A DNA stretch of 64,000 nt from contig CAYYVY010000006.1 in NCBI GenBank assembly GCA_964475265.1, forward strand, positions 761-64,760, given 5' to 3'. A program made the translations under genes and the position numbers. This document shows positions 16,789 through 26,309 of the stretch, piece after piece (within the stretch, counting starts at the first letter, position 1; each line of letters opens with the position of its first letter). The stretch comes from an uncultured Anaerolineaceae bacterium. Its GTDB lineage: Bacteria; Chloroflexota; Anaerolineae; Anaerolineales; E44-bin32. The notes beneath the pieces were generated by a model that had not been told where the DNA came from, did no database searches, and saw only the letters and a program-made list of their open reading frames with translations.

Positions 16789-17154
16789 ATGGAATTGCCC
16801 GTCGTCAATCCGTCTGAAGGAGATCTGCCGCCCGAAGAAGTCCGAATTCGGACGGTGTCGATTGACGTGCAAGCGGATCGTCGCCGAGTACGCATTTCGA
16901 TTGAGCTGACGCCGTTTCAAAGTCCCCCTGATCTTGCGGTGATGATTACAGATCGCGATCGTAGAGAACTGGTCAGTACGAATATCATCGGCGCCATGAA
17001 CAGTAAATTATCGTTTACCATGCATCTTCCCGAGCTCAGGCCTTCGAGTGATTGCATGCTTCATGCAGCAGTGGAATATCAGCAGCAGGGAAGAACTGAC
17101 GAGATGGAGAAGGCTTTTTCGCTAACCAGCACGTCGTCTGCAGCAGAAGATTGA
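16789..17154 (+). CDS. hypothetical protein (121 aa, no recognisable motif)
   Basis: This ORF follows a 325-bp AT-rich intergenic region. Its stop lies 7 nt before the start of the large regulator gene, which suggests co-transcription. I recognise no family. Confidence 0.5.
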   Translation: MELPVVNPSEGDLPPEEVRIRTVSIDVQADRRRVRISIELTPFQSPPDLAVMITDRDRRELVSTNIIGAMNSKLSFTMHLPELRPSSDCMLHAAVEYQQQGRTDEMEKAFSLTSTSSAAED

Positions 17155-17161
17155 GGGGCGG

Positions 17162-20100
17162 ATGGCAAGATACAGCTCCGTTCTACGGCACGCAATTACG
17201 CCACTGAGCTTCGATGTCGAATCCAAGGTGCATCGGGAGCACCTTGTCGATGAAATCCACGCGAACATTCCCCGCAAACTCATTATCGTGGCAGCCCCAG
17301 CAGGGTATGGGAAAACGACGCTGCTCGCCGATTTTACCAATCACACCGAATTGCCGGTTTGCTGGGTACGTCTTTCGGCGTTGGATCAAGACTTATTTCA
17401 TTTCGCCATGGTGCTCTCCAGCTCGCTGCAGCGACGTTTCAGGCGGTTGCAGGGGACGATTGATTTCAACTCGATTTCGGGTTATTCGCCTGAAGCCCTC
17501 GCACGCATGTTTGTCGAAGTGATCGATGCCAATATTAACGAGACCTTCGTCATCGCCCTGGATGACATTCATTGGATCAACAAATCCAAACCGATTCTGT
17601 CTTTTCTGGATCGTTTCCTGGAAGAACAGCCCGAACAGGTAACGCTCATCGCTTTGGGGAGGGAAGTGCTCGAGGTGTCCCTGGCAAAGTTCATGGCGGA
17701 GGGTAATCTGATTGGCTTTGGTCCGCAAGACCTGGCTTTGTCGAAAGAGGAAATCATTCAGCTGGCGCACATCCAATCCGATTTGGATATTGGTGAGGAC
17801 GCTGCAGAGCGGTTGCGGCACGATACGCGTGGTTGGATAACGGGCGTGATCCTTTCGGCGGAATTATCGGGTAGAGGGCTGCATGCGTTGAAGATGAGCT
17901 CGCGGCCAATGGTTTATGAATACCTGGCGTCGGTCGTGCTGAATCGGCAGCCGGACGATCTGCGTCGTTTCGTGCTAGACACTTCGGTTTTTCCGGTCAT
18001 GACGGTGGAGGGCTGTAATTATTTACTGCGGCGCGACGATAGTTCCGCCATGCTGGCTCGCATCGTCAGCCGGGGGTTGTTCGTCACGGCGACGGAGGAC
18101 AGTCCACGAACTTACGAATACCACCCGCAATTCCGTGAATTTCTATTGGAAACCCTCCTGGGTGGAGATGCCAGACATCACAAACGCTTGCTCATCCGTG
18201 CGGCGAAATACCTGGCCGATCACGATTCCCCTGAGTACGCCGTCGAACTTTTCTGCGACGCCGGAGAAGGTAAGAGTGCTGTTGAACTGGCCGAAAAACG
18301 TGCCCGCGAGATGTTTGTCAGCGGGCGTTGGCAAACCCTCGAAGTATGGGCGAGACGGCTTGAAGAGATTGATTCTCCCGCTCTGCGCGTGCTGCTGTTC
18401 CTCGCGGCGAAATATACCTATCAGGGAAGGATCGAGGAAGCGGAGCAAATCCTCGATCAAGCGAAGACAATGCTGGATCTGGATTCGCCTAAAAACGTGC
18501 GCGCGTATTACGAAATCCTTCGCGCCCACATCTCACTTCGTAGAGGATCATACGAGGTGGTTATCGAAATCGTCGAGCGCGCGGAGAAAATTTTAAAACC
18601 ATCCGGCAGACGATTGCAGAAAGCAGAATGTTATCGATTGCGTGCATGGGCATCCTCACGCCAGGGAGATCTACATTCAGCTGAATCCTATTGTGCGAAG
18701 GCGGTTGCATTACTGCGGAAGTCGGACGATCCATTGGAGTTGGCTTACGGTTTAATCGATCAATCCACAATGCAGATTGCCCTGGGCAAATCGTCGGAAG
18801 CGTACGCTACGACGAAGCAAGCACATCAAATCCTGCTGCAGGATGGCGCCCCACTGCCACTGTCGGTTTCCTTCATGAATCTTGCGCACGATTCGCATCA
18901 GCGTGGCGAGTATGAAGAGGCAATGGAGCTGTACAATGAAGGTCTCAAATATGCACGTCAGGCGGCTAGCCCACCGCAAGAAGCTTTAATTCTCTTCGGA
19001 CAAGCGGATTTATTTAACGATCTCAACCTCGCCCTGCAAGCCGCAGAGCTTTATGGTCTGGGATTGGATATCGCCATACATTTGGATGATTTTCAGCATA
19101 TCCGTTATGGCTGCGTGCAGACGAGTGTCCTGCATCGCAGGCGCGGGGGAAGCAGCCTGGCGCATGATTGGCTTCGACGTGCAATGAACCTCGAGAAAAC
19201 CAGCGATTTGACGCCGGAAATTTTGATCCAGTTGGCGGCCCTCGAATCGATGGTCAGACCTCAACAGGCTGTGATGAAGCTTAAATCGATCGTCTCCATG
19301 GAAAACGAAGTCGATGTTGGGATCATCACGTTGGGTCTCTATTTTCAATCGCGAGCGCAATATGCAATCGGGAATCGGGAGGAAGCCCAGAATACACTCA
19401 AACGTGCCCTCGATTGGGCAAACACCAACGGAACCGAGCAATTGCTGTCAGCAGAATTGTCTTTCGATGACGCTTTTCGTGAGTTTGCCAGAACTCGTCT
19501 GACCGGTCACCCGTCACTTTCAGTAGCCCTGCGCAGAGTGGAGACGATGCGAGCCGTCGCACAACATTACCGCAATATTGGCGAAGAAAAGGATCTTCGA
19601 GGTGTACGGCTTGTGTTTAAAGCATTCGGGGATGCACACGTTATCAAGAATGATACCCAGATTACGGATCTGAAACCGCTTGCCCGGGAAGTGTCGTTTT
19701 ATTTGATCGACCACCAGCATGTTGACCGGGATGTGCTCCTGGAGACTTTCTGGCGACACCATCCTCCTGGCCGACAAGTGGCGAATCTGCATACGGCTGT
19801 GTACAGCCTGCGGCGAGTTCTTGGCCGTTCGACAATTCTGCACGAAGGGTCGGTTTACTTGACCAATCCCGATATCCCCATTGAATACGATGTGGCTCGA
19901 TTTGAACGAGCTACGTCGGTGGCGGAGAGCCTGCCGATCGGTGATCCTCGCCGTATGTTCGCCCTCACAGAAGCGATCAACTCATACACAGGGTCCTTCC
20001 TATCGGAATTCGATTCAGATTGGGTCACCGAACGGCGCCGGGATTTGGAACTCCAGTATCTTGACTTGTTGGCGCAGCACGCCGAAGAGGCGCTGATCCG

Positions 20101-20320
20101 CGATCAACCGTTAAGAGCGGTGAATACACTTCGTCAGGCCCTGCAGATCGACCCCCTTCGTGATGATACCAACATCCAATTTCTGGAAGCCCTGGGGCGA
20201 TTAGGCCGGCGCAGTGAAGTCGTAGCCCACTATCAGAAATATGTGAGTCTGCTCTCGATGGAACTGGGACTAGATCCGCCGAAAACGGTCCGTGATCTGT
20301 ACGCTCGCCTGATTAAGTAA
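17162..20320 (+). CDS. STAND-type P-loop NTPase - TPR/helical repeats - C-terminal SARP module (winged helix + BTAD) transcriptional regulator
   Basis: 1052 aa. It has Walker A AAPAGYGKTTLL and Walker B FVIALDDIHW (MalT/LuxR-large-ATPase-like), followed by a long helical-repeat middle. The last ~250 aa match the OmpR-type wHTH (...LLETFWRHHPPGRQVANLHTAVYSLRRVLG) and the BTAD (...LRQALQIDPLRDDTNIQFLEALGRLGRRSEVVAHYQKYVSLLSMELGLDPPKTVRDLYARL). Confidence 0.85.
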   Translation: MARYSSVLRHAITPLSFDVESKVHREHLVDEIHANIPRKLIIVAAPAGYGKTTLLADFTNHTELPVCWVRLSALDQDLFHFAMVLSSSLQRRFRRLQGTIDFNSISGYSPEALARMFVEVIDANINETFVIALDDIHWINKSKPILSFLDRFLEEQPEQVTLIALGREVLEVSLAKFMAEGNLIGFGPQDLALSKEEIIQLAHIQSDLDIGEDAAERLRHDTRGWITGVILSAELSGRGLHALKMSSRPMVYEYLASVVLNRQPDDLRRFVLDTSVFPVMTVEGCNYLLRRDDSSAMLARIVSRGLFVTATEDSPRTYEYHPQFREFLLETLLGGDARHHKRLLIRAAKYLADHDSPEYAVELFCDAGEGKSAVELAEKRAREMFVSGRWQTLEVWARRLEEIDSPALRVLLFLAAKYTYQGRIEEAEQILDQAKTMLDLDSPKNVRAYYEILRAHISLRRGSYEVVIEIVERAEKILKPSGRRLQKAECYRLRAWASSRQGDLHSAESYCAKAVALLRKSDDPLELAYGLIDQSTMQIALGKSSEAYATTKQAHQILLQDGAPLPLSVSFMNLAHDSHQRGEYEEAMELYNEGLKYARQAASPPQEALILFGQADLFNDLNLALQAAELYGLGLDIAIHLDDFQHIRYGCVQTSVLHRRRGGSSLAHDWLRRAMNLEKTSDLTPEILIQLAALESMVRPQQAVMKLKSIVSMENEVDVGIITLGLYFQSRAQYAIGNREEAQNTLKRALDWANTNGTEQLLSAELSFDDAFREFARTRLTGHPSLSVALRRVETMRAVAQHYRNIGEEKDLRGVRLVFKAFGDAHVIKNDTQITDLKPLAREVSFYLIDHQHVDRDVLLETFWRHHPPGRQVANLHTAVYSLRRVLGRSTILHEGSVYLTNPDIPIEYDVARFERATSVAESLPIGDPRRMFALTEAINSYTGSFLSEFDSDWVTERRRDLELQYLDLLAQHAEEALIRDQPLRAVNTLRQALQIDPLRDDTNIQFLEALGRLGRRSEVVAHYQKYVSLLSMELGLDPPKTVRDLYARLIK

Positions 20321-20513
20321 ACGGCGCTGTTTTTAGGTTTCGCTTTTCTAAATTTCTGGAGAACTGTCATCGTCTGACCGCCAAGTAGTAAAAAATCGTC
20401 AATCCCCCATTGATCGCTGTGGCCTGCAATTTGCATCCCATCCGGCACGACCATTCAACTCCAGTCCAATGTAATTATGATCCGGTCTGAAATGCTTGAA
20501 TCGTCCATCTTTT

Positions 20514-20556
20514 GTTGATTGTCGTTGAGAATCTGTTGAGTACTTTATTGTAGAGT
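20514..20556 (+). promoter_or_regulatory. three direct GTTGA(G) repeats at 10/11-nt phasing plus a candidate -10 TAGAGT
   Basis: GTTGA occurs at 20514, 20524 and 20535, and the last two copies are GTTGAG. TAGAGT lies at 20551-20556, 9 nt after the third repeat. The layout resembles SARP boxes. Confidence 0.4.
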
Positions 20557-20594
20557 AATAAGCAGAGAGAGAACACAATCATAAGGAGGTTGCC

Positions 20595-20645
20595 ATGCCG
20601 AATGTACGCTGCGTTCGCGGTGGTGGTCTTATTGGCGGGGGCTAG
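20595..20645 (+). CDS. 16-codon micro-ORF MPNVRCVRGGGLIGGG (candidate small peptide or leader peptide)
   Basis: AGGAGG at 20584-20589 sits 5 nt before the ATG, and the ORF ends in TAG. A clean intrinsic terminator follows 43 nt later. It is too short for the ORF track. Confidence 0.35.
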   Translation: MPNVRCVRGGGLIGGG

Positions 20646-20687
20646 ATTTTTAGCCGTTTATATTTGAATCACACCAATAATACGCCT

Positions 20688-20724
20688 GGCAGCGAGGCGA
20701 AGTGACTTGCTGCCTTTTTATTTT
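20688..20724 (+). terminator. intrinsic terminator between the micro-ORF and the NHLP-like gene
   Basis: The stem GGCAGCGAG/CTTGCTGCC is 9 bp with one G-U pair, the loop is 9 nt, and TTTTTATTTT follows. Confidence 0.65.
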
Positions 20725-20757
20725 CTAGACCTTACGATATTCAGGAGGTTTTTAAAA

Positions 20758-21048
20758 ATGAGTATGCAAAGTCTAAATCAGCTCGTGGCACGTTCGATTA
20801 TCGATCCAGGTGTCGTGCAGGCTTTTACATCCGGCAACATGTCTGAAATCCTGAACGGAATGGATTTAACACCCAAACTTCGAGCTGATCTCGGTTGTCT
20901 CGAAGCGAGTTCGTTTGTGGAATTTGCGATCAAAGCATACCGAATTGTAAAAGCCGCGGAGATAAAACCACTCCAAATCGATTTGCCTTCTCCGATTACA
21001 GGCTTGATTTCGGATCAAGATCGTGCAGAAGGTGAACAAGCTGCATGA
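20758..21048 (+). CDS. small helical protein resembling NHLP/Nif11-type leader-domain proteins
   Basis: 96 aa, with AGGAGG 9 nt before ATG 20758. The TTG start at 20707 in the track lies inside the terminator stem. The pattern LNQLVARSIIDPGVVQAF...MDLTPKLRADLGCLEASSFVEFA resembles NHLP-clan leader regions. This assignment is from memory and is unverified. Confidence 0.55.
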   Translation: MSMQSLNQLVARSIIDPGVVQAFTSGNMSEILNGMDLTPKLRADLGCLEASSFVEFAIKAYRIVKAAEIKPLQIDLPSPITGLISDQDRAEGEQAA

Positions 21049-21545
21049 TCGCTTGCACGAAGAAGGAGCGGGAGTGGTTCTTGCAGAACATCGCACAGGG
21101 ACTTGTGGATTATCTCGGTGTGATGGAACCTCCCGTACCAATCGAAGATCTGCTTAAGAATCCCCCGGCATTATTCGATGCGGATTTCGGCGTCGTAGAA
21201 ATGAACTCCGAGCTATGGGACGCTACGTTCGCGCGGCTGCCCGATCAAAGTGGCAAAGTATTCGTCCATACAAACCTCGGACCAGAAGCTCGCCGTTACG
21301 CATTGGCGCGGGAGACCTTAAGTGCATTGATAACCAGCAAGCACGGACAAAACATGGGTCTTTTTGAATTGGTTGAATCCCACTTAAGAGAATCTGCGGA
21401 ATTTTTTGCAAGAATACTGCTCGCGCCGCCGCGTTTGCTACGTCGCTTCTGTTCCGGGGATGGCGCGGTAAAGCGGATTGTAACGGAATTTAAATTACCG
21501 ATGCACGCCGCTTCGAAACTTTGGGAAGAAATGAGTACAGCCTAG
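21045..21545 (+). CDS. ImmA/IrrE (DUF955)-like protein with a degenerate metal site
   Basis: 166 aa with an ATGA overlap to the previous gene. Its topology matches ImmA/IrrE (RRYALARETLSALI ... ESAEFFARILLAPPRLL), but HExxH is replaced by RETLS. Confidence 0.6.
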   Translation: MIACTKKEREWFLQNIAQGLVDYLGVMEPPVPIEDLLKNPPALFDADFGVVEMNSELWDATFARLPDQSGKVFVHTNLGPEARRYALARETLSALITSKHGQNMGLFELVESHLRESAEFFARILLAPPRLLRRFCSGDGAVKRIVTEFKLPMHAASKLWEEMSTA

Positions 21546-21724: not shown

Positions 21725-23647
21725 TTGACGAATCATGAGACATCTCTAAGCGATACAACATCTGGGGCTCGAAGGACAACGATAAAACCCTGGATTTTTC
21801 GATCCTTTCTATTTCTCGCTTTAATCGTTGTTGGTGGGATTGGATGGATAAGCGTTCGAATTCAAAATCGCCTGCGCGACTCGCAAATGGATCCGACGGT
21901 AATATCGTTAGCCACTTCGATGGCGTACACCGCAACGCCGAGTCCATCGCTTACGGTTTCTCCTGCCTTGCCGACCAATACTCCGGCGCCTACAAGAACC
22001 ACATCGTGGGGAACGATCATCTTTTCGGGAAGAGAAAATGGGCGGACACATTTGTGGGCTTATGTTCCGGGCGATTCGAGCCCATCTCGACTGACGGGCG
22101 GTGCGTGGGATGACCGTGATCCAGCCGTGAGTCCCGATGGATTGTCGGTTGCATTTTCCTCGCGTCGGAATGGACACTGGGATTTATATGTACTCGACTT
22201 GCAATCGGGTGAAATCCGACAGCTATCCAACACCCCAGGATATGAAGGAAACCCGACATGGTCTCCGGATGGAATGTGGTTGGCGTTCGAGGCTTACTAC
22301 AATGACAATTTTGACATTTGGATCGTTCCTGTCGATCTCGGACAGGCTCCGATCCAACTCACGATCTATCCGGGTGCGGACCTCAGCCCAAGCTGGGATC
22401 CTCAAGGGCGCAGGATTGCCTTTGTTTCCGATCGGGATGGCTCTCCTGATATCTTTCTGGCAAACCTCGATGAACCGGATGATCGTTTTCGCAACATGAC
22501 CAACACCAAATCGACCGTTGAGAGTACGCCGGTCTTTAGCATCGACGGATCTTCGTTGGCTTACAGTGAAACCTCCTCGGGAATTGATGTCGTCAAGGTG
22601 TTTGACATGAACGATCTCGATCGGCCGCCTTACGAAGCCGGGCAAGGCCGTCATGCGGCCTGGTCTCCCGATGGACGATACATGGTCACCATTTTGCGTA
22701 CGGCGTTGTACCGTCGCTTTCAGGTTTTCGCCCTCGATCATTCCGAAGCAACGGATTTGCCGGTCATGCCATGGGTTGATGTTGATGACGTAACGTGGAC
22801 GGCGGCAGGGATGCCGGGAGAGATCTACGCCGCCGAACGAATACCGGCCACCGATGCACCGTTGTTGGATACAGCGCTTGACGAACTACAGAACGAGAAT
22901 GAATTAAAGGACCTTGTTGATCTACCCGGCGTACGCGCCCCACATCCTTCTTTGTCTGAGGCCGTCGACCAGAATTTTCTTGCCCTCAAGCAACGCAGCA
23001 TTTCAGTCCTGGGATGGGATTTCCTGGAAAGTCTGGACAATGCCTTCGTTGGTTTGAACGATCCGATGCCTCCCGGATTTGCGTACAACGATTGGCTCTA
23101 CACCGGTCGGGCATTTGCTTTCAACAGCTCGGCGATACAGGCTGGTTGGGTGGAATTCCTTCGAGAGGATTTTGGCGGTCAAACATTTTGGCGGGTTTAT
23201 GTACTCGCGGCGCTTCAAGACGGCACGCTGGGAGAACCGCTGCGAGAACTGCCGTGGGATTTCGATACGCGTATTAACGGAGATCCGAGCACTTACGATC
23301 AGGGTGGATCGCTGCAAGAGTCCATCCCCCCTGGCTATTACGTCGATTTTACGCAGTTGGCCGCCGATTACGGTTTTGAACGACTTCCCGCGCTGTCCAA
23401 TTGGCGTACGTTCTATCACGGAACGCGCCTCAACGAGTTCGTTCGACGCGAGGGTTTAAGCTGGACAGAGGCGATGTTGGAACTGTATCCCGCCTCGGCA
23501 CTGGTGACACCCACGCCGTTCCAAACCCCGACAAACACGCCTACACGCACGCCGAAACCGACGGCAACGTCCTGGTGGTGGCGCTGGCGAACCCCGTCTC
23601 CAACACCAACGCAGCAGCCGGTATATACCCCCACTGCGACGCCATGA
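21725..23647 (+). CDS. membrane-anchored TolB-like (PD40 beta-propeller repeat) protein with an unknown C-terminal domain and a Pro/Thr-rich tail
   Basis: 640 aa with an N-terminal TM segment and repeated PD40-like units (DRDPAVSPDG, EGNPTWSPDG, DLSPSWDPQG, HAAWSPDG). The C-terminus is PTNTPTRTPKPTATSWWWRWRTPSPTPTQQP. Confidence 0.75.
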   Translation: MTNHETSLSDTTSGARRTTIKPWIFRSFLFLALIVVGGIGWISVRIQNRLRDSQMDPTVISLATSMAYTATPSPSLTVSPALPTNTPAPTRTTSWGTIIFSGRENGRTHLWAYVPGDSSPSRLTGGAWDDRDPAVSPDGLSVAFSSRRNGHWDLYVLDLQSGEIRQLSNTPGYEGNPTWSPDGMWLAFEAYYNDNFDIWIVPVDLGQAPIQLTIYPGADLSPSWDPQGRRIAFVSDRDGSPDIFLANLDEPDDRFRNMTNTKSTVESTPVFSIDGSSLAYSETSSGIDVVKVFDMNDLDRPPYEAGQGRHAAWSPDGRYMVTILRTALYRRFQVFALDHSEATDLPVMPWVDVDDVTWTAAGMPGEIYAAERIPATDAPLLDTALDELQNENELKDLVDLPGVRAPHPSLSEAVDQNFLALKQRSISVLGWDFLESLDNAFVGLNDPMPPGFAYNDWLYTGRAFAFNSSAIQAGWVEFLREDFGGQTFWRVYVLAALQDGTLGEPLRELPWDFDTRINGDPSTYDQGGSLQESIPPGYYVDFTQLAADYGFERLPALSNWRTFYHGTRLNEFVRREGLSWTEAMLELYPASALVTPTPFQTPTNTPTRTPKPTATSWWWRWRTPSPTPTQQPVYTPTATP

Positions 23648-24729
23648 GACGCTTCGGACTCCTTCTGCTTGCGATCGCACTAACGGCGGTTTTGCTCTTC
23701 GCCTGTGAATCCGAGGGCGGCGGTATCGCTCATCCCACCGAGTCGAGCGGCGTTGAGCCTCCGCTTTCTGCAACGGCGACACCCTCGGACGCGCAGGATG
23801 TTTCGAATCCCATGCTCGGCGACCCGGCCAAGACGCCGTTGCCCGTCGCGTTCCCCACAGTTGAGCCGAGTGAAGAGCTGGATTGGCGGCCGCCGCCTTA
23901 TCCCGCGCCTTGGGCACTGCGTGCGGAAGACCATTATTTCTTCTGGCGGCCCATTCCTTCAGGACAGGTAAATTGGCCCCATCCTTTTTACCGCTATGGG
24001 AGTTCCTATTTCGGCGAATCGGACATCCATACCGGTGTGGATTTGGGCGCCGATCGTGGTGCACCCGTACTCGCGGCCGGCTCGGGTGAGGTGGTCTGGG
24101 TTGGCTATGGACTTTACCGCGGCACGGAAGATCCGTCCGACCCGTATGGCCTCGCGGTGGCAATCCGGCACGATTTTGGCTATCGAGGGCAGGAACTCTA
24201 TACGGTTTACGCACATATGCAAGAGATCTTCGTCTGGGATGGGCAGCATGTAGAGGCCGGTGAGCAACTTGGGACCGTGGGATCCACAGGGCACTCCGAT
24301 GGTCCTCATCTGCACTTCGAAGTTCGGTTGGGGGAAAATCGTTACTTCAGCACGAGAAACCCCGAATTGTGGATGGTACCTCCCGAAGGCTGGGCGGTGT
24401 TGGCCGGACGAATTACGGATACCTATGGGAATCTAATGCCCGAATTTCCGTTGAAAATTCGATCGTTGGAAACGGACAAGAAGTGGGAAGTATGGACGTA
24501 CGTCCTCACGACGATTCATCCTGATGATTATTACAATGAAAATTTCGTGATCAGTGATTTGCCTGCCGGGCCGTACGAGATAACGATCGATTTCGTAGGC
24601 TTTCAATACGTCGCATATTTAACTCTATACGCAGGTGAAACCAACTTCATACTGTTTCGTGGCCGCAATGGTTTCGTCGTTCATCCTACGCCGACGCCGG
24701 TCGATCACTCCAGACCTCCCGATCTATAA
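23644..24729 (+). CDS. M23 (LytM-type) metallopeptidase lipoprotein
   Basis: I prefer ATG 23644 (ATGA overlap with the upstream stop), which gives MRRFGLLLLAIALTAVLLFAC, a lipobox-like signal. The M23 motifs HTGVDLG and GHSDGPHLHFEVR are present. Confidence 0.85.
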   Translation: MRRFGLLLLAIALTAVLLFACESEGGGIAHPTESSGVEPPLSATATPSDAQDVSNPMLGDPAKTPLPVAFPTVEPSEELDWRPPPYPAPWALRAEDHYFFWRPIPSGQVNWPHPFYRYGSSYFGESDIHTGVDLGADRGAPVLAAGSGEVVWVGYGLYRGTEDPSDPYGLAVAIRHDFGYRGQELYTVYAHMQEIFVWDGQHVEAGEQLGTVGSTGHSDGPHLHFEVRLGENRYFSTRNPELWMVPPEGWAVLAGRITDTYGNLMPEFPLKIRSLETDKKWEVWTYVLTTIHPDDYYNENFVISDLPAGPYEITIDFVGFQYVAYLTLYAGETNFILFRGRNGFVVHPTPTPVDHSRPPDL

Positions 24730-24749
24730 ACAGCGAAAGGGCGAGCTTG

Positions 24750-26309
24750 ATGCGAATGTCGGAAAGCTTTGGGCGCACGCTGCGTCAAGCCCCCGCCGGA
24801 CACGATCCCTCGACGGCGTACGCCTTACGAGCCGCCCTCGTTCGCTTCATTGACGAGCGGCTTGCATTCCTTCCCATCGGACTGCGTGTAGTCACTAATA
24901 TTTCTGAAGAACTGCTGCAGGATCACGAGGCGGGCAATCACATTGACGTACCTGGCGATGTCCATTTCGATACGTGGCGGAGATTGATCGATGACGAAAT
25001 CCAATCGTATCGCCCACTACCACTACGTTTGTTTTCGCATCGTTTTCTGCATTTCTCCGACCATCTAAGTGGCCTTGCCAGTCCGAAATGGGTGCGTGGA
25101 TTGCAATGGCAGTATGCCGCGGCTTCGGAAATCTCGCTGGCCGAACTGTGTGAGCAATGGTTGGATCGGTGCGAAAGACGGCTAGGTTCACTGGGTCTTC
25201 AATTGCAAAGGTTCGAGCGGGGTGAAGGGGCGGTAGGCTGGATTTACCTGTGTGATTTCGGCCCGCAAAAGCTGCTGGCCTGTTCCTCATGCTCCTACAT
25301 GGCTTCCCAGGCGAGGGCGCGATTTAACCGCAGTGATTTCGCACAGGAAGACCTGCGGACCATGGAGCTCGTTTCGACTCCCGGCACGGACACCATCGAG
25401 AGTCTGACGGTGTTCCTCGGGATCCCGGCAGCGAAGACGCTGAAAGCCGTGTTCCTACGCAGCAACGACGGGACTGTCGTATTGGTGCTCATCCGCGGAG
25501 ATCTGGAAATCAGCCTCGAGAAACTCGAGCGCGTGCTTGGCCGAGGATCGTTGATCCCAGCTACCCGTGAAGATATTGCGCAAATCGGCGCCGTGCCGGG
25601 CTATGCAAGCCCCATCAATTTACAGGTTCGCGCTCAAGTAGAATCCGAAGGAGTCCTGGTGGTGGCGGACCTTTCGATTGAACACGGGTCGAATTTCACC
25701 AGCGGCGCCAACAAAGCGGGATACCATTTCAGCGGCGTGAATTATCCGCGCGATTTCGAGGTGACGTTACTCGCAGATATCGCCATGCCCAGGGCGGGAG
25801 ATCGATGCCCGGAATGCGGAAAAGCACTCGAAATACGGTCCGGGATTCGTGTGGGAGATTGGGAAGCGCGTGGGAATGCTTTCCAATTTTCGGACGAAGG
25901 CGGAAATCTCGATCATGGCTGGCTGGGCACGGGGATCCTGTACATCGAACCTATCCTCGCGGCTTTGATCGACGTCTATCATCATGAGGGGGTTGCAAAT
26001 TGGCCGGGTCGATTGGCGCCGTATGATGTCTACCTGGTGGATCTTCGCTCCCCACAAGCGACGAACGAAGTGCTCGAAGAATTGCAAGCAAAAGGGTTGA
26101 GCGTGCTGCTCGATGATCGCGAAGTATCACCCGGCGTGAAGTTTACAGATTCCGATCTCTTCGGTTGCCTCTTCCGTATTACAGTCAGCAAGCGCAGCCT
26201 GGAACGAGGGGGAGTGGAACTCGTGTGTCGCGCTGGCCAAATAGAGACGATTTACTCCCTTGCAACGGTCGCGGCGGAGGCTGCGGCGTTGAAAAACAAA
26301 TTTATGTAA
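24750..26309 (+). CDS. prolyl-tRNA-synthetase-like paralogue with degenerate class II catalytic motifs (INS editing and anticodon-binding domains retained)
   Basis: The N-terminus MRMSESFGRTLRQAP is ProRS-like. The INS/YbaK-like block (TLKAVFLRS...GANKAGYHFSGVNYPRDF) and the anticodon-binding block (YDVYLVDL...LLDDREVSPGVKFTDSDL) are intact. At motif 2 and motif 3 the sequence reads HRFLHFSDHLSG and GTGILYIEP. Confidence 0.7.
   Translation: MRMSESFGRTLRQAPAGHDPSTAYALRAALVRFIDERLAFLPIGLRVVTNISEELLQDHEAGNHIDVPGDVHFDTWRRLIDDEIQSYRPLPLRLFSHRFLHFSDHLSGLASPKWVRGLQWQYAAASEISLAELCEQWLDRCERRLGSLGLQLQRFERGEGAVGWIYLCDFGPQKLLACSSCSYMASQARARFNRSDFAQEDLRTMELVSTPGTDTIESLTVFLGIPAAKTLKAVFLRSNDGTVVLVLIRGDLEISLEKLERVLGRGSLIPATREDIAQIGAVPGYASPINLQVRAQVESEGVLVVADLSIEHGSNFTSGANKAGYHFSGVNYPRDFEVTLLADIAMPRAGDRCPECGKALEIRSGIRVGDWEARGNAFQFSDEGGNLDHGWLGTGILYIEPILAALIDVYHHEGVANWPGRLAPYDVYLVDLRSPQATNEVLEELQAKGLSVLLDDREVSPGVKFTDSDLFGCLFRITVSKRSLERGGVELVCRAGQIETIYSLATVAAEAAALKNKFM

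Follow-up and report, generated by a model that had tools for sequence, protein, structure and literature searches.

Classical transcription attenuators (trpL, hisL, pheL, thrL and ilv/leu) combine a short translated open reading frame (ORF) with alternative terminator and antiterminator pairings. A further arrangement is known from mccA-mccB, where RNA further upstream in the transcript weakens the terminator and a ribosome on the tiny ORF restores it, so that short transcripts abound and read-through ones are a minority (Zukher et al. 2014, PMC4231749). Here we describe an element from an uncultured Anaerolineaceae bacterium, found in a stretch of 64,000 nucleotides (the window; contig CAYYVY010000006.1, positions 761–64,760, forward strand). 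It consists of a Gly-rich micro-ORF of 16 sense codons with a strong Shine-Dalgarno sequence (SD), followed by a U-rich hairpin and the gene for a 96-residue protein, p96. As judged by comparison with its orthologues, this is most likely a real, conserved leader micro-ORF with an overlapping RNA switch, a variant of known attenuation logic serving an uncharacterised operon under a SARP-type activator.

The likeness to mccA lies in a very short first ORF with a strong SD and an intrinsic terminator in the next intergenic region. However, the mccA peptide is the substrate of MccB, whereas no ThiF/MccB-like or other modifying enzyme is encoded among the neighbours here; mccA has 7 codons ending in Asn, whereas the micro-ORFs of the present family are Gly-rich and mostly 9–24 codons long; and the masking structure of mccA is unresolved, whereas here folding predicts a specific duplex between the ORF and the 5' arm of the hairpin. 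With the classical attenuators the element shares a run of codons for one amino acid in a peptide of ~15 residues whose other residues are little constrained. It differs from them in that the candidate antiterminator strand is contained in the 5' part of the ORF instead of following it, the stop codon stands at least 30 nt from the hairpin (in all loci except a degenerate one), the operon is not linked to the amino acid of the run, and the predicted polarity may be reversed.

Two protein systems also bear on the locus. AfsR and its target afsS of Streptomyces (PMC10936776, PMC10832544) resemble it in that a large SARP protein with NOD/STAND and TPR regions stands beside a small ORF whose promoter has direct repeats of 11-bp period near the −10 element. 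In the Chloroflexota locus, however, the domain order is permuted (STAND-TPR-SARP), the small ORF has mostly 9–24 codons against ~63 and no resemblance to afsS in sequence or size, and a terminator and an operon come after it. In Streptomyces the small product binds back to its regulator. The IrrE/PprI-DdrO, ImmA-ImmR and CapP-CapH modules share with the operon the fold of its second protein, p166 (Foldseek probability 1.0), coupled to a small partner, p96; but p166 has lost the HExxH motif, and no search matched p96 to an Xre-type helix-turn-helix repressor. We know of no ImmA/IrrE-type module with a leader micro-ORF at its head. A last parallel comes from Sinorhizobium meliloti, whose peTrpL (PMC7298713), an attenuator leader peptide of 14 residues, has a second function in trans, so that cis and trans roles can coexist; peTrpL is part of a Trp attenuator and works together with a small RNA and antibiotics, and no such partners are known for our element.

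The micro-ORF and its hairpin are conserved across Anaerolineales

The element has the following parts, in window coordinates.

20583–20589, forward strand: Shine-Dalgarno sequence AAGGAGG of the micro-ORF (sequence, alignment)
20595–20645, forward strand: micro-ORF, 16 sense codons plus TAG (20643–20645), peptide MPNVRCVRGGGLIGGG (sequence, orthologues, coding signature)
20607–20612, forward strand: segment A, CGC-TGC (Arg5-Cys6), candidate antiterminator strand, complementary to GCAGCG of the hairpin 5' arm (20689–20694)
20688–20696, forward strand: segment B, hairpin 5' arm GGCAGCGAG, within the near-invariant GGCAGCGAGGC (sequence, folding, alignment)
20706–20724, forward strand: segment C, 3' arm CTTGCTGCC (20706–20714) and T-run TTTTTATTTT (20715–20724) (sequence, folding)

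The SD, the micro-ORF from ATG 20595 to TAG 20645 and the 9-bp U-rich hairpin are all found where a preliminary description of this DNA had placed them. The hairpin also precedes the SD of the next gene as described, and it begins 42 nt past the stop codon. The AAGGAGG, which belongs to a conserved block, GGAGGTTGCC-ATG, whose GGAGG is invariant in alignment A4, is separated from the ATG by 5 nt, and the peptide contains 7 Gly, 1 Cys and 2 Arg. Segments B and C pair over 9 bp, including one G-U, around a 9-nt loop that is followed by the T-run; the hairpin has an energy of −16.4 kcal/mol and is present in both the minimum-energy and the centroid structures of RNAfold. With a G+C-rich hairpin and a U-run, B and C together are predicted to form an intrinsic (Rho-independent) terminator, which a simple terminator scan omitted solely because the 9-nt loop exceeds the tool's 8-nt limit. 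Beyond it lie the AGGAGG (20743–20748) and ATG (20758, not 20759) of p96. An Rfam scan of 19800–21300 (E ≤ 10) returned two chance-level matches and no family that fits, and a literature search yielded no description of the element.

A scan of species genomes gave 76 loci, nearly all from metagenome-assembled genomes labelled Anaerolineales, Anaerolineaceae or Chloroflexota. An SD-led ORF, mostly of 9–24 codons, occupies the same position upstream of p96 in ~70 of them, and in ~70 of the 76 the whole SD-ORF-hairpin arrangement recurs. It is this conservation across loci, and not the sequence of the single window, that places the arrangement beyond chance. Within the genus the intergenic DNA is 69–87% identical, and p96 can be traced through the GTDB family. 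The gene order is fixed: orf121, the STAND-TPR-SARP regulator, the micro-ORF, p96, p166, a PD40 protein and, in some loci, an M23 peptidase. Among the 76 loci p96 is found in 76, PD40 in 65, the regulator directly upstream in 61 and M23 in 43, the loci that lack the regulator upstream being mostly contig-truncated. The micro-ORF has no unlinked paralogues in its own genome, where it is single-copy. The locus as a whole is a single-copy, vertically inherited core locus of an order-level clade and not as a mobile gene cluster.

Orthologous peptides include MVSTRCPRDGALID, MTKARCPRDGGLSGG, MARCPMVGGGGT, MHNRCPKDGGGRKPKDGGG, MTGVRCVVPAGGPGGGH, MRGLDGGFG and MANDPVGGR. One orthologue (L091, CAVSID010000002.1, ~200 nt upstream of p96) is broken by an in-frame TAG and a frameshift and retains the tail GGT-GGT-GGT-GGC-GGT-CAC-TAG and the hairpin; the breakage is either recent decay or an assembly error. 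Four further ORFs are degenerate or atypical, namely 6-codon remnants in L081 and L083 and atypical peptides in L070 and L093. In all of these loci p96 and p166 remain intact. No exact match to two of the 24-residue orthologues was found in a collection of 15 billion predicted proteins.

The micro-ORF evolves as a coding sequence

For pairs of ORFs picked by DNA identity alone, synonymous and nonsynonymous codon differences stand at 160:134 in frame, as against 24:250 and 33:245 in the two shifted frames, and the third codon position accounts for 328 differences, compared with 156 and 117 at the other two. Four loci share the identical 14-mer MVSTRCPRDGALID with many silent differences between them, including AGA/CGA switches. 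By this comparative evidence the micro-ORF is a real, translated and previously unannotated mini-gene. Of the signs that the preliminary description had named as speaking against a gene, the comparison showed few: the ORF is kept as a coding sequence, with a stop and frameshift in one locus and degenerate or atypical forms in four.

Selection is unevenly distributed along the peptide. Gly positions show synonymous and nonsynonymous differences of 75:36 and the Arg-Cys-Pro (R-C-P) positions are essentially fixed, whereas positions outside these two groups (48:98) are near the neutral expectation, for which the synonymous fraction is 0.24. The six clustered Gly codons singled out in the preliminary description are conserved as amino acids: throughout the family Gly codons rotate among all four synonyms, and Gly, Asp and Pro are kept as residues while their codons are free. 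Gly makes up 31.5% of family residues against 7.9% in the genome, and Gly, Pro and Asp together 45.5% against 18.9%. The share of Gly is 47–66% at each of positions −2 to −5 counted from the C-terminal residue and 38% at position −1. The pattern at Gly and R-C-P suits a leader peptide better than a bioactive one.

No residue is universal among the micropeptides, whose lengths fall mostly between 9 and 24. Their identity is 78% where that of p96 is 95%, and ~30% where p96 is at or below 70%; where the micropeptides are ~30% identical, p96 and p166 retain 55–63%. The idea that the peptide is more conserved than its neighbours was rejected, as it evolves faster than p96 and p166. A role for GGAGG within the Gly run as a ribosome-holding site was likewise rejected, because such internal SD-like motifs are depleted rather than enriched (9 observed against 20.5 ± 3.5 expected). 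The stop codons of the family (n = 69) are TAG in 34, TAA in 31 and TGA in 4 cases, whereas TGA closes 47% of the long ORFs in this genome, TAA 30% and TAG 22%; the rarity of TGA in the micro-ORFs points to a preference for stops read by RF1.

A candidate antiterminator strand lies within the ORF

The 5' arm of the hairpin, GGCAGCGAGGC, is near-invariant across the clade, while the 3' arm varies between classes (CUUGCUGCC, GCCUCCUGCC, GCCUGCUGCC and UUCGGCUGCC) with its pairing kept, and at least 5 of the first 8 nt past the hairpin are T in 48 of 65 loci. The preliminary description had singled out 20688–20696 as the strand for which an antiterminator partner might be found. Such a partner is offered by the Arg-Cys(-Pro) codons, at 20607–20612 in the window and complementary there to 20689–20694: as (x)CU-CGY-UGC-CC they are the complement of the 5' arm, the A:B duplex reaching 9–12 bp in most classes and dominating the predicted fold of the nascent RNA. 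In the R-C-P classes A:B has an energy of −16 to −21 kcal/mol, with z-scores down to −5.5 against shuffled sequences. It is the minimum-energy pairing of the RNA cut before the 3' arm in L031, L034, L039, L052, L053, L065 and L076, and it survives in the full-length fold of L031, L039, L052, L065 and L076; in some such loci, most clearly L031 and L039, the SD of the micro-ORF becomes the partner of the 3' arm. The RNAalifold consensus of 28 leaders consists essentially of the A:B helix only.

Codon choice also favours this duplex, which points to a constraint at the RNA level on top of the coding constraint. In 52 of 63 loci the real codons give better pairing with the arm than synonymous recodings of the peptide, and the median rank is 0.07 in the R-C-P classes and 0.28 elsewhere, where 0.5 would be expected. 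The Arg before Cys is encoded by CGC, CGU or CGA in 35 of 35 cases and never by AGR or CGG (0/35), whereas other Arg positions use all six codons.

The geometry of the leader is similarly restricted. The distance from SD to A is 17 nt in 32 of 37 loci, while that from SD to ATG varies between 4 and 14 nt. In loci of the MARCP class (e.g. L052, L054 and L061) the ATG lies 6 nt further downstream in the same frame, giving an SD-to-ATG distance of 11 instead of 5, and the distance from SD to CGY-UGC is unchanged at 17 nt. From this geometry, an initiating ribosome would always cover A. The distance from A to the stop codon is 30–33 nt in 25 of 37 loci, and the gap between stop codon and hairpin is 30 nt or more in 64 of 65 (median 48 nt), the exception being the degenerate L081, in which no real hairpin was found; at this distance a terminating ribosome would be unable to block the hairpin. 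Spacing of this kind agrees with efficient termination downstream of a translated gene (PMC4824070). The hairpin in turn lies 33–110 nt from the ATG of p96.

Two further candidates were tried and set aside. The 5' arm is not a genome-wide repeat or protein site, with 5 matches against 4 for a control, and a hairpin between the ORF tail and the spacer after the stop is class-specific rather than universal (rank below 0.1 in 38% of loci) and absent from the window.

A model of ribosome-gated attenuation

We consider it somewhat probable that the micro-ORF and hairpin constitute a ribosome-gated transcription attenuator at the head of an operon of micro-ORF, p96, p166, PD40 and M23. In this model, transcription would start at the SARP-box promoter described below, the only recognisable promoter of the operon, which is presumably activated by the upstream STAND-TPR-SARP regulator. 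Segment A (CGY-UGC-CC), 17 nt past the SD, would fall within the footprint of the initiating ribosome. On naked RNA, A would pair with B, the terminator would be blocked and RNA polymerase would continue into p96. Once a ribosome occupies the start region, from the SD through the AUG to the first codons, it would mask A, B would pair with C and transcription would terminate, so that ribosome occupancy would yield much of a short micro-ORF transcript and little mRNA of the operon. Compared with classical attenuation, control may run in the opposite direction, with a ribosome on the ORF promoting termination, a logic established experimentally for mccA (PMC4231749); alongside the observed conservation, coding signature and complementarity, it is this polarity and the dependence on the ribosome that we infer.

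Gly, Pro and Asp are poor substrates for peptidyl transfer and termination. As the amino-acid conservation of the tail is not explained by RNA pairing, the Gly/Pro/Asp-rich C-terminal half of the peptide would either tune ribosome dwell or sensing, or reflect a function of the peptide in trans. The micropeptide may additionally act in trans.

A number of observations weigh against the attenuator model. RNAalifold found no two-sided covariation for A:B in the 28 leaders, with one-sided C-to-U changes only, as there is hardly any variation in either strand. For the genus of the window itself (R-C-V/Q/A) the A:B duplex has just 6 bp (z −0.8), and the fold of the truncated RNA pairs B locally instead. 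Classes without R-C-P (MANDPVGGR, MRGxDGGF and others) have no significant complementarity between ORF and arm and keep the same arm, the invariance of which in these classes points to a further constraint beyond the pairing of B with A or C, perhaps binding by a protein or by another RNA. In one subgroup AUUUCGCG replaces the U-run after the hairpin. The operon contains no genes for glycine synthesis or charging, and the match between regulatory codons and downstream pathway that marks an attenuator is lacking, the Gly run standing before p96, a pseudo-IrrE protein, PD40 and M23. Additionally, three salt-marsh metatranscriptomes contain only single short low-depth contigs, which are uninformative on transcript ends and too thin to reveal the short transcript; the one piece covering the site (20647–20787) spans the hairpin.

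A predicted SARP-box promoter and its likely activator

The features upstream of the micro-ORF are as follows.

17162–20320, forward strand: regulator of 1052 aa with an N-terminal P-loop/MalT-like STAND ATPase, a TPR region and a C-terminal SARP module (wHTH and BTAD) (Pfam, NCBIfam)
20514–20541, forward strand: SARP-box-like direct repeats GTTGAT (20514), GTTGAG (20524) and GTTGAG (20535), with a 10–11-nt period (sequence)
20551–20556, forward strand: −10-like hexamer TAGAGT (sequence)

The domains of the regulator are assigned by Pfam matches to BTAD (3.7e-21, residues 910–1050), TPR_MalT and AAA_22/AAA_16, and by NCBIfam matches to MalT (6.6e-60, residues 19–558) and AfsR (6.2e-16, residues 811–1051). 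Its domain order is permuted, the reverse of AfsR, with STAND and TPR first and wHTH and BTAD last. This architecture and the predicted target box are conserved together across the clade. A quorum-sensing pair of peptide and TPR protein of the RRNPP type was considered and rejected: the peptides, mostly of 9–24 residues, are basic and Gly-rich and have no hydrophobic signal segment, and the regulator has the STAND-TPR-SARP architecture and not that of RRNPP proteins. The upstream orf121 (16789–17154), which encodes 121 aa and matches no family, ends 7 nt before the start of the regulator gene and is detectable by tblastn in 30 of the 76 loci; its product probably acts as a conserved partner to the regulator.

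The last GTTGAG repeat ends 9 nt before TAGAGT, and a conserved CAGAGWGGAA-type block after this hexamer probably marks the 5' end of the transcript. Blocks of TGTAnnnT / AGAGTGGAA align across classes. Two copies of GTTGAG (at most one mismatch each, 11-nt period) are present in 52 of 71 distinct leaders, 47–60 nt before the ATG of the micro-ORF, and an exact GTTGAG-N5-GTTGAG occurs once in the 3.6-Mb genome, as against 0 for a control. SARP promoters are known for direct repeats with an 11-bp (or 22-bp) period, the 3' repeat lying ~8 bp from the −10 (PMC10936776), and the repeats conform to this geometry as a predicted SARP box. Given this agreement, the uniqueness of the box in the genome and the adjacent SARP module, the regulator is the likely dedicated activator of the promoter. 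A promoter scan of 20200–21100, which includes the gap between hairpin and p96, found no sigma-70-like promoter.

The downstream operon

Three stretches follow the hairpin.

20758–21048, forward strand: p96, 96 aa, five helices (residues 1–68) and a conserved disordered tail LPSPxEGL (model, alignment)
21045–21545, forward strand: p166, ImmA/IrrE (Peptidase_M78) fold (PF06114 in 65 of 71 orthologues, Foldseek)
21725–24729, forward strand: PD40/TolB-like propeller protein (640 aa) and M23 peptidase (442-aa ORF) (Pfam, NCBIfam, synteny)

For p96, in which the tail motif LPSPxEGL is invariant, neither Pfam, NCBIfam nor a search of solved folds gave a family or fold, and its assignment as an NHLP/Nif11-like or PqqD/RRE protein is unsupported (1 of 72 members, at E 0.099). 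The start of p166 overlaps the stop of p96 (ATGA), an arrangement of translational coupling. The AlphaFold model of p166 has a predicted local distance difference test (pLDDT) score of 92, and its top Foldseek matches are PprI/IrrE, CapP and an Mtb regulator (probability 1.0, TMq 0.63); a PDB sequence search gave no match. In place of the HExxH zinc site p166 has R-E-x-L-S, with R89, E90 and L92 as invariant columns, and both zinc-binding His residues are lost in 71 of 71 orthologues. By its sequence, p166 is a conserved pseudo-peptidase.

As listed (TTG 23401), the M23 ORF shares ~250 nt with the end of the PD40 gene. It is probably over-extended, with its true start near the PD40 stop, and with that start PD40 and M23 look translationally coupled. 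Further downstream a ProRS-like paralogue of 520 aa (24747–26309), syntenic in 17 of the 76 loci only, has recognisable tRNA_edit and anticodon-binding domains alone, its ProRS match starting at residue 165; an MBL hydrolase follows. Among the 8 neighbours of the micro-ORF, Pfam and NCBIfam recognised no RiPP (ribosomally synthesized and post-translationally modified peptide) maturase, transporter or immunity gene.

Alternative explanations

The main function could instead lie in the micropeptide itself, acting in trans as a cofactor or ligand of the regulator (an AfsS-like feedback) or as a partner of p96/p166, with the terminator setting the ratio of peptide to protein. We regard this as somewhat unlikely, although it is plausible and compatible with an attenuator, differing in the main target of selection. 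It would account for the conservation of Gly, Asp and Pro as amino acids with free codon choice, and for a strong SD and a terminator of the gene's own. The position of the gene directly downstream of a TPR regulator, behind a box that is unique in the genome, and the fast split into classes, which resembles families of pheromones and ligands, also fit. There are precedents in AfsR, which activates the adjacent small gene afsS and is bound by AfsS with enhanced DNA binding (PMC10832544), and in the trans function of the leader peptide peTrpL (PMC7298713). However, residues outside Gly and R-C-P are nearly unconstrained (48:98), identity falls to ~30% where p96/p166 keep 55–63%, the length is mostly anywhere from 9 to 24 with no universal residue, and one broken and four degenerate or atypical ORFs stand beside intact p96/p166. 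Moreover, the genome has no unlinked paralogues, neither a signal sequence nor an export gene is present, and the conservation of R-C-P is at least partly due to RNA pairing. Also in question is whether the peptide and its amino acids matter in a classical way, with stalling at the C-terminal Gly codons, through scarce tRNA-Gly or slow Gly/Pro/Asp chemistry, exposing A to B and so allowing read-through. Such an attenuator would make sense of the enrichment in Gly (31.5% against 7.9%), clustered at the C-terminal end and conserved regardless of codon; with A 30–33 nt from the stop, this segment would stay exposed when a ribosome pauses at the ORF end. A terminator and a candidate antiterminator are both present, and the hairpin of ORF tail and spacer found in many classes resembles a 1:2 helix. 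What makes this quite improbable is that no downstream gene serves glycine synthesis or charging, that 30 nt or more separate the stop from the hairpin everywhere but in one degenerate locus, with no conserved segment 2 beside the hairpin, and that some classes with two Gly only (MANDPVGGR) still keep the hairpin. Pro, Asp and Arg are conserved as well, which a pure Gly sensor would not need, and a literature search gave no report of a Gly-codon leader-peptide attenuator.

The preliminary description had offered two readings, a leader peptide for attenuation and a highly expressed peptide whose leaky terminator sets its stoichiometry, as in bacteriocin and RiPP precursor genes. The first is the better supported, by the antiterminator partner and by codon choice. 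From the second, an abundant short transcript would fit and the bacteriocin/RiPP context does not. A precursor with a terminator that sets its ratio to a modifying enzyme recalls the tiny ORF, strong SD and intergenic terminator of mccA-mccB (PMC4231749), and the peptide does contain Cys and Gly; yet the neighbours include no recognisable adenylating, YcaO, radical-SAM, lanthipeptide or other maturase and neither a transporter nor an immunity gene, the locus is single-copy, syntenic and vertically inherited rather than patchy, 9–24 residues show no leader/core organisation, and p166 lacks the catalytic His residues, all of which makes this reading very improbable. Least probable of all is that conservation concerns an RNA leader or small RNA and nothing else, with the reading frame as a by-product. 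The 5' arm and A are indeed conserved at the nucleotide level, and the SD-to-A spacing is held when the ATG moves, but changes at third positions dominate (328 against 156 and 117) with a synonymous excess in one frame only, Gly codons rotate among four synonyms, the SD and ATG are retained in ~70 loci, and there is no Rfam match.

Implications

Genes this small are invisible to annotation. The ~70 natural variants of the micro-ORF reveal coding and RNA-pairing constraints overlapping within a few codons, rarely so cleanly, and make it a compact test case for selection on micro-ORFs. A bolder proposal, which we hold to be unlikely, is that the micropeptide is a dedicated ligand or cofactor of the NLR-like STAND-TPR-SARP regulator, an AfsR/AfsS-like pair shrunk to 9–24 residues whose synthesis would be coupled through the ORF-embedded antiterminator to a pseudo-protease and cell-envelope operon, or else that it is the first "slow-peptide" sensor of translation capacity based on Gly, Pro and Asp; either would be a new module specific to Anaerolineales. 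If the ribosome-gated attenuator model is true, ribosome-induced termination, so far shown for the microcin C operon, would extend to a chromosomal core operon in a poorly studied and mostly uncultured phylum, and this termination logic would be linked to a SARP-type, NLR-like activator outside Actinobacteria. The micro-ORF also provides a handle on an otherwise opaque module of p96, an IrrE-like pseudo-protease, PD40 and M23.

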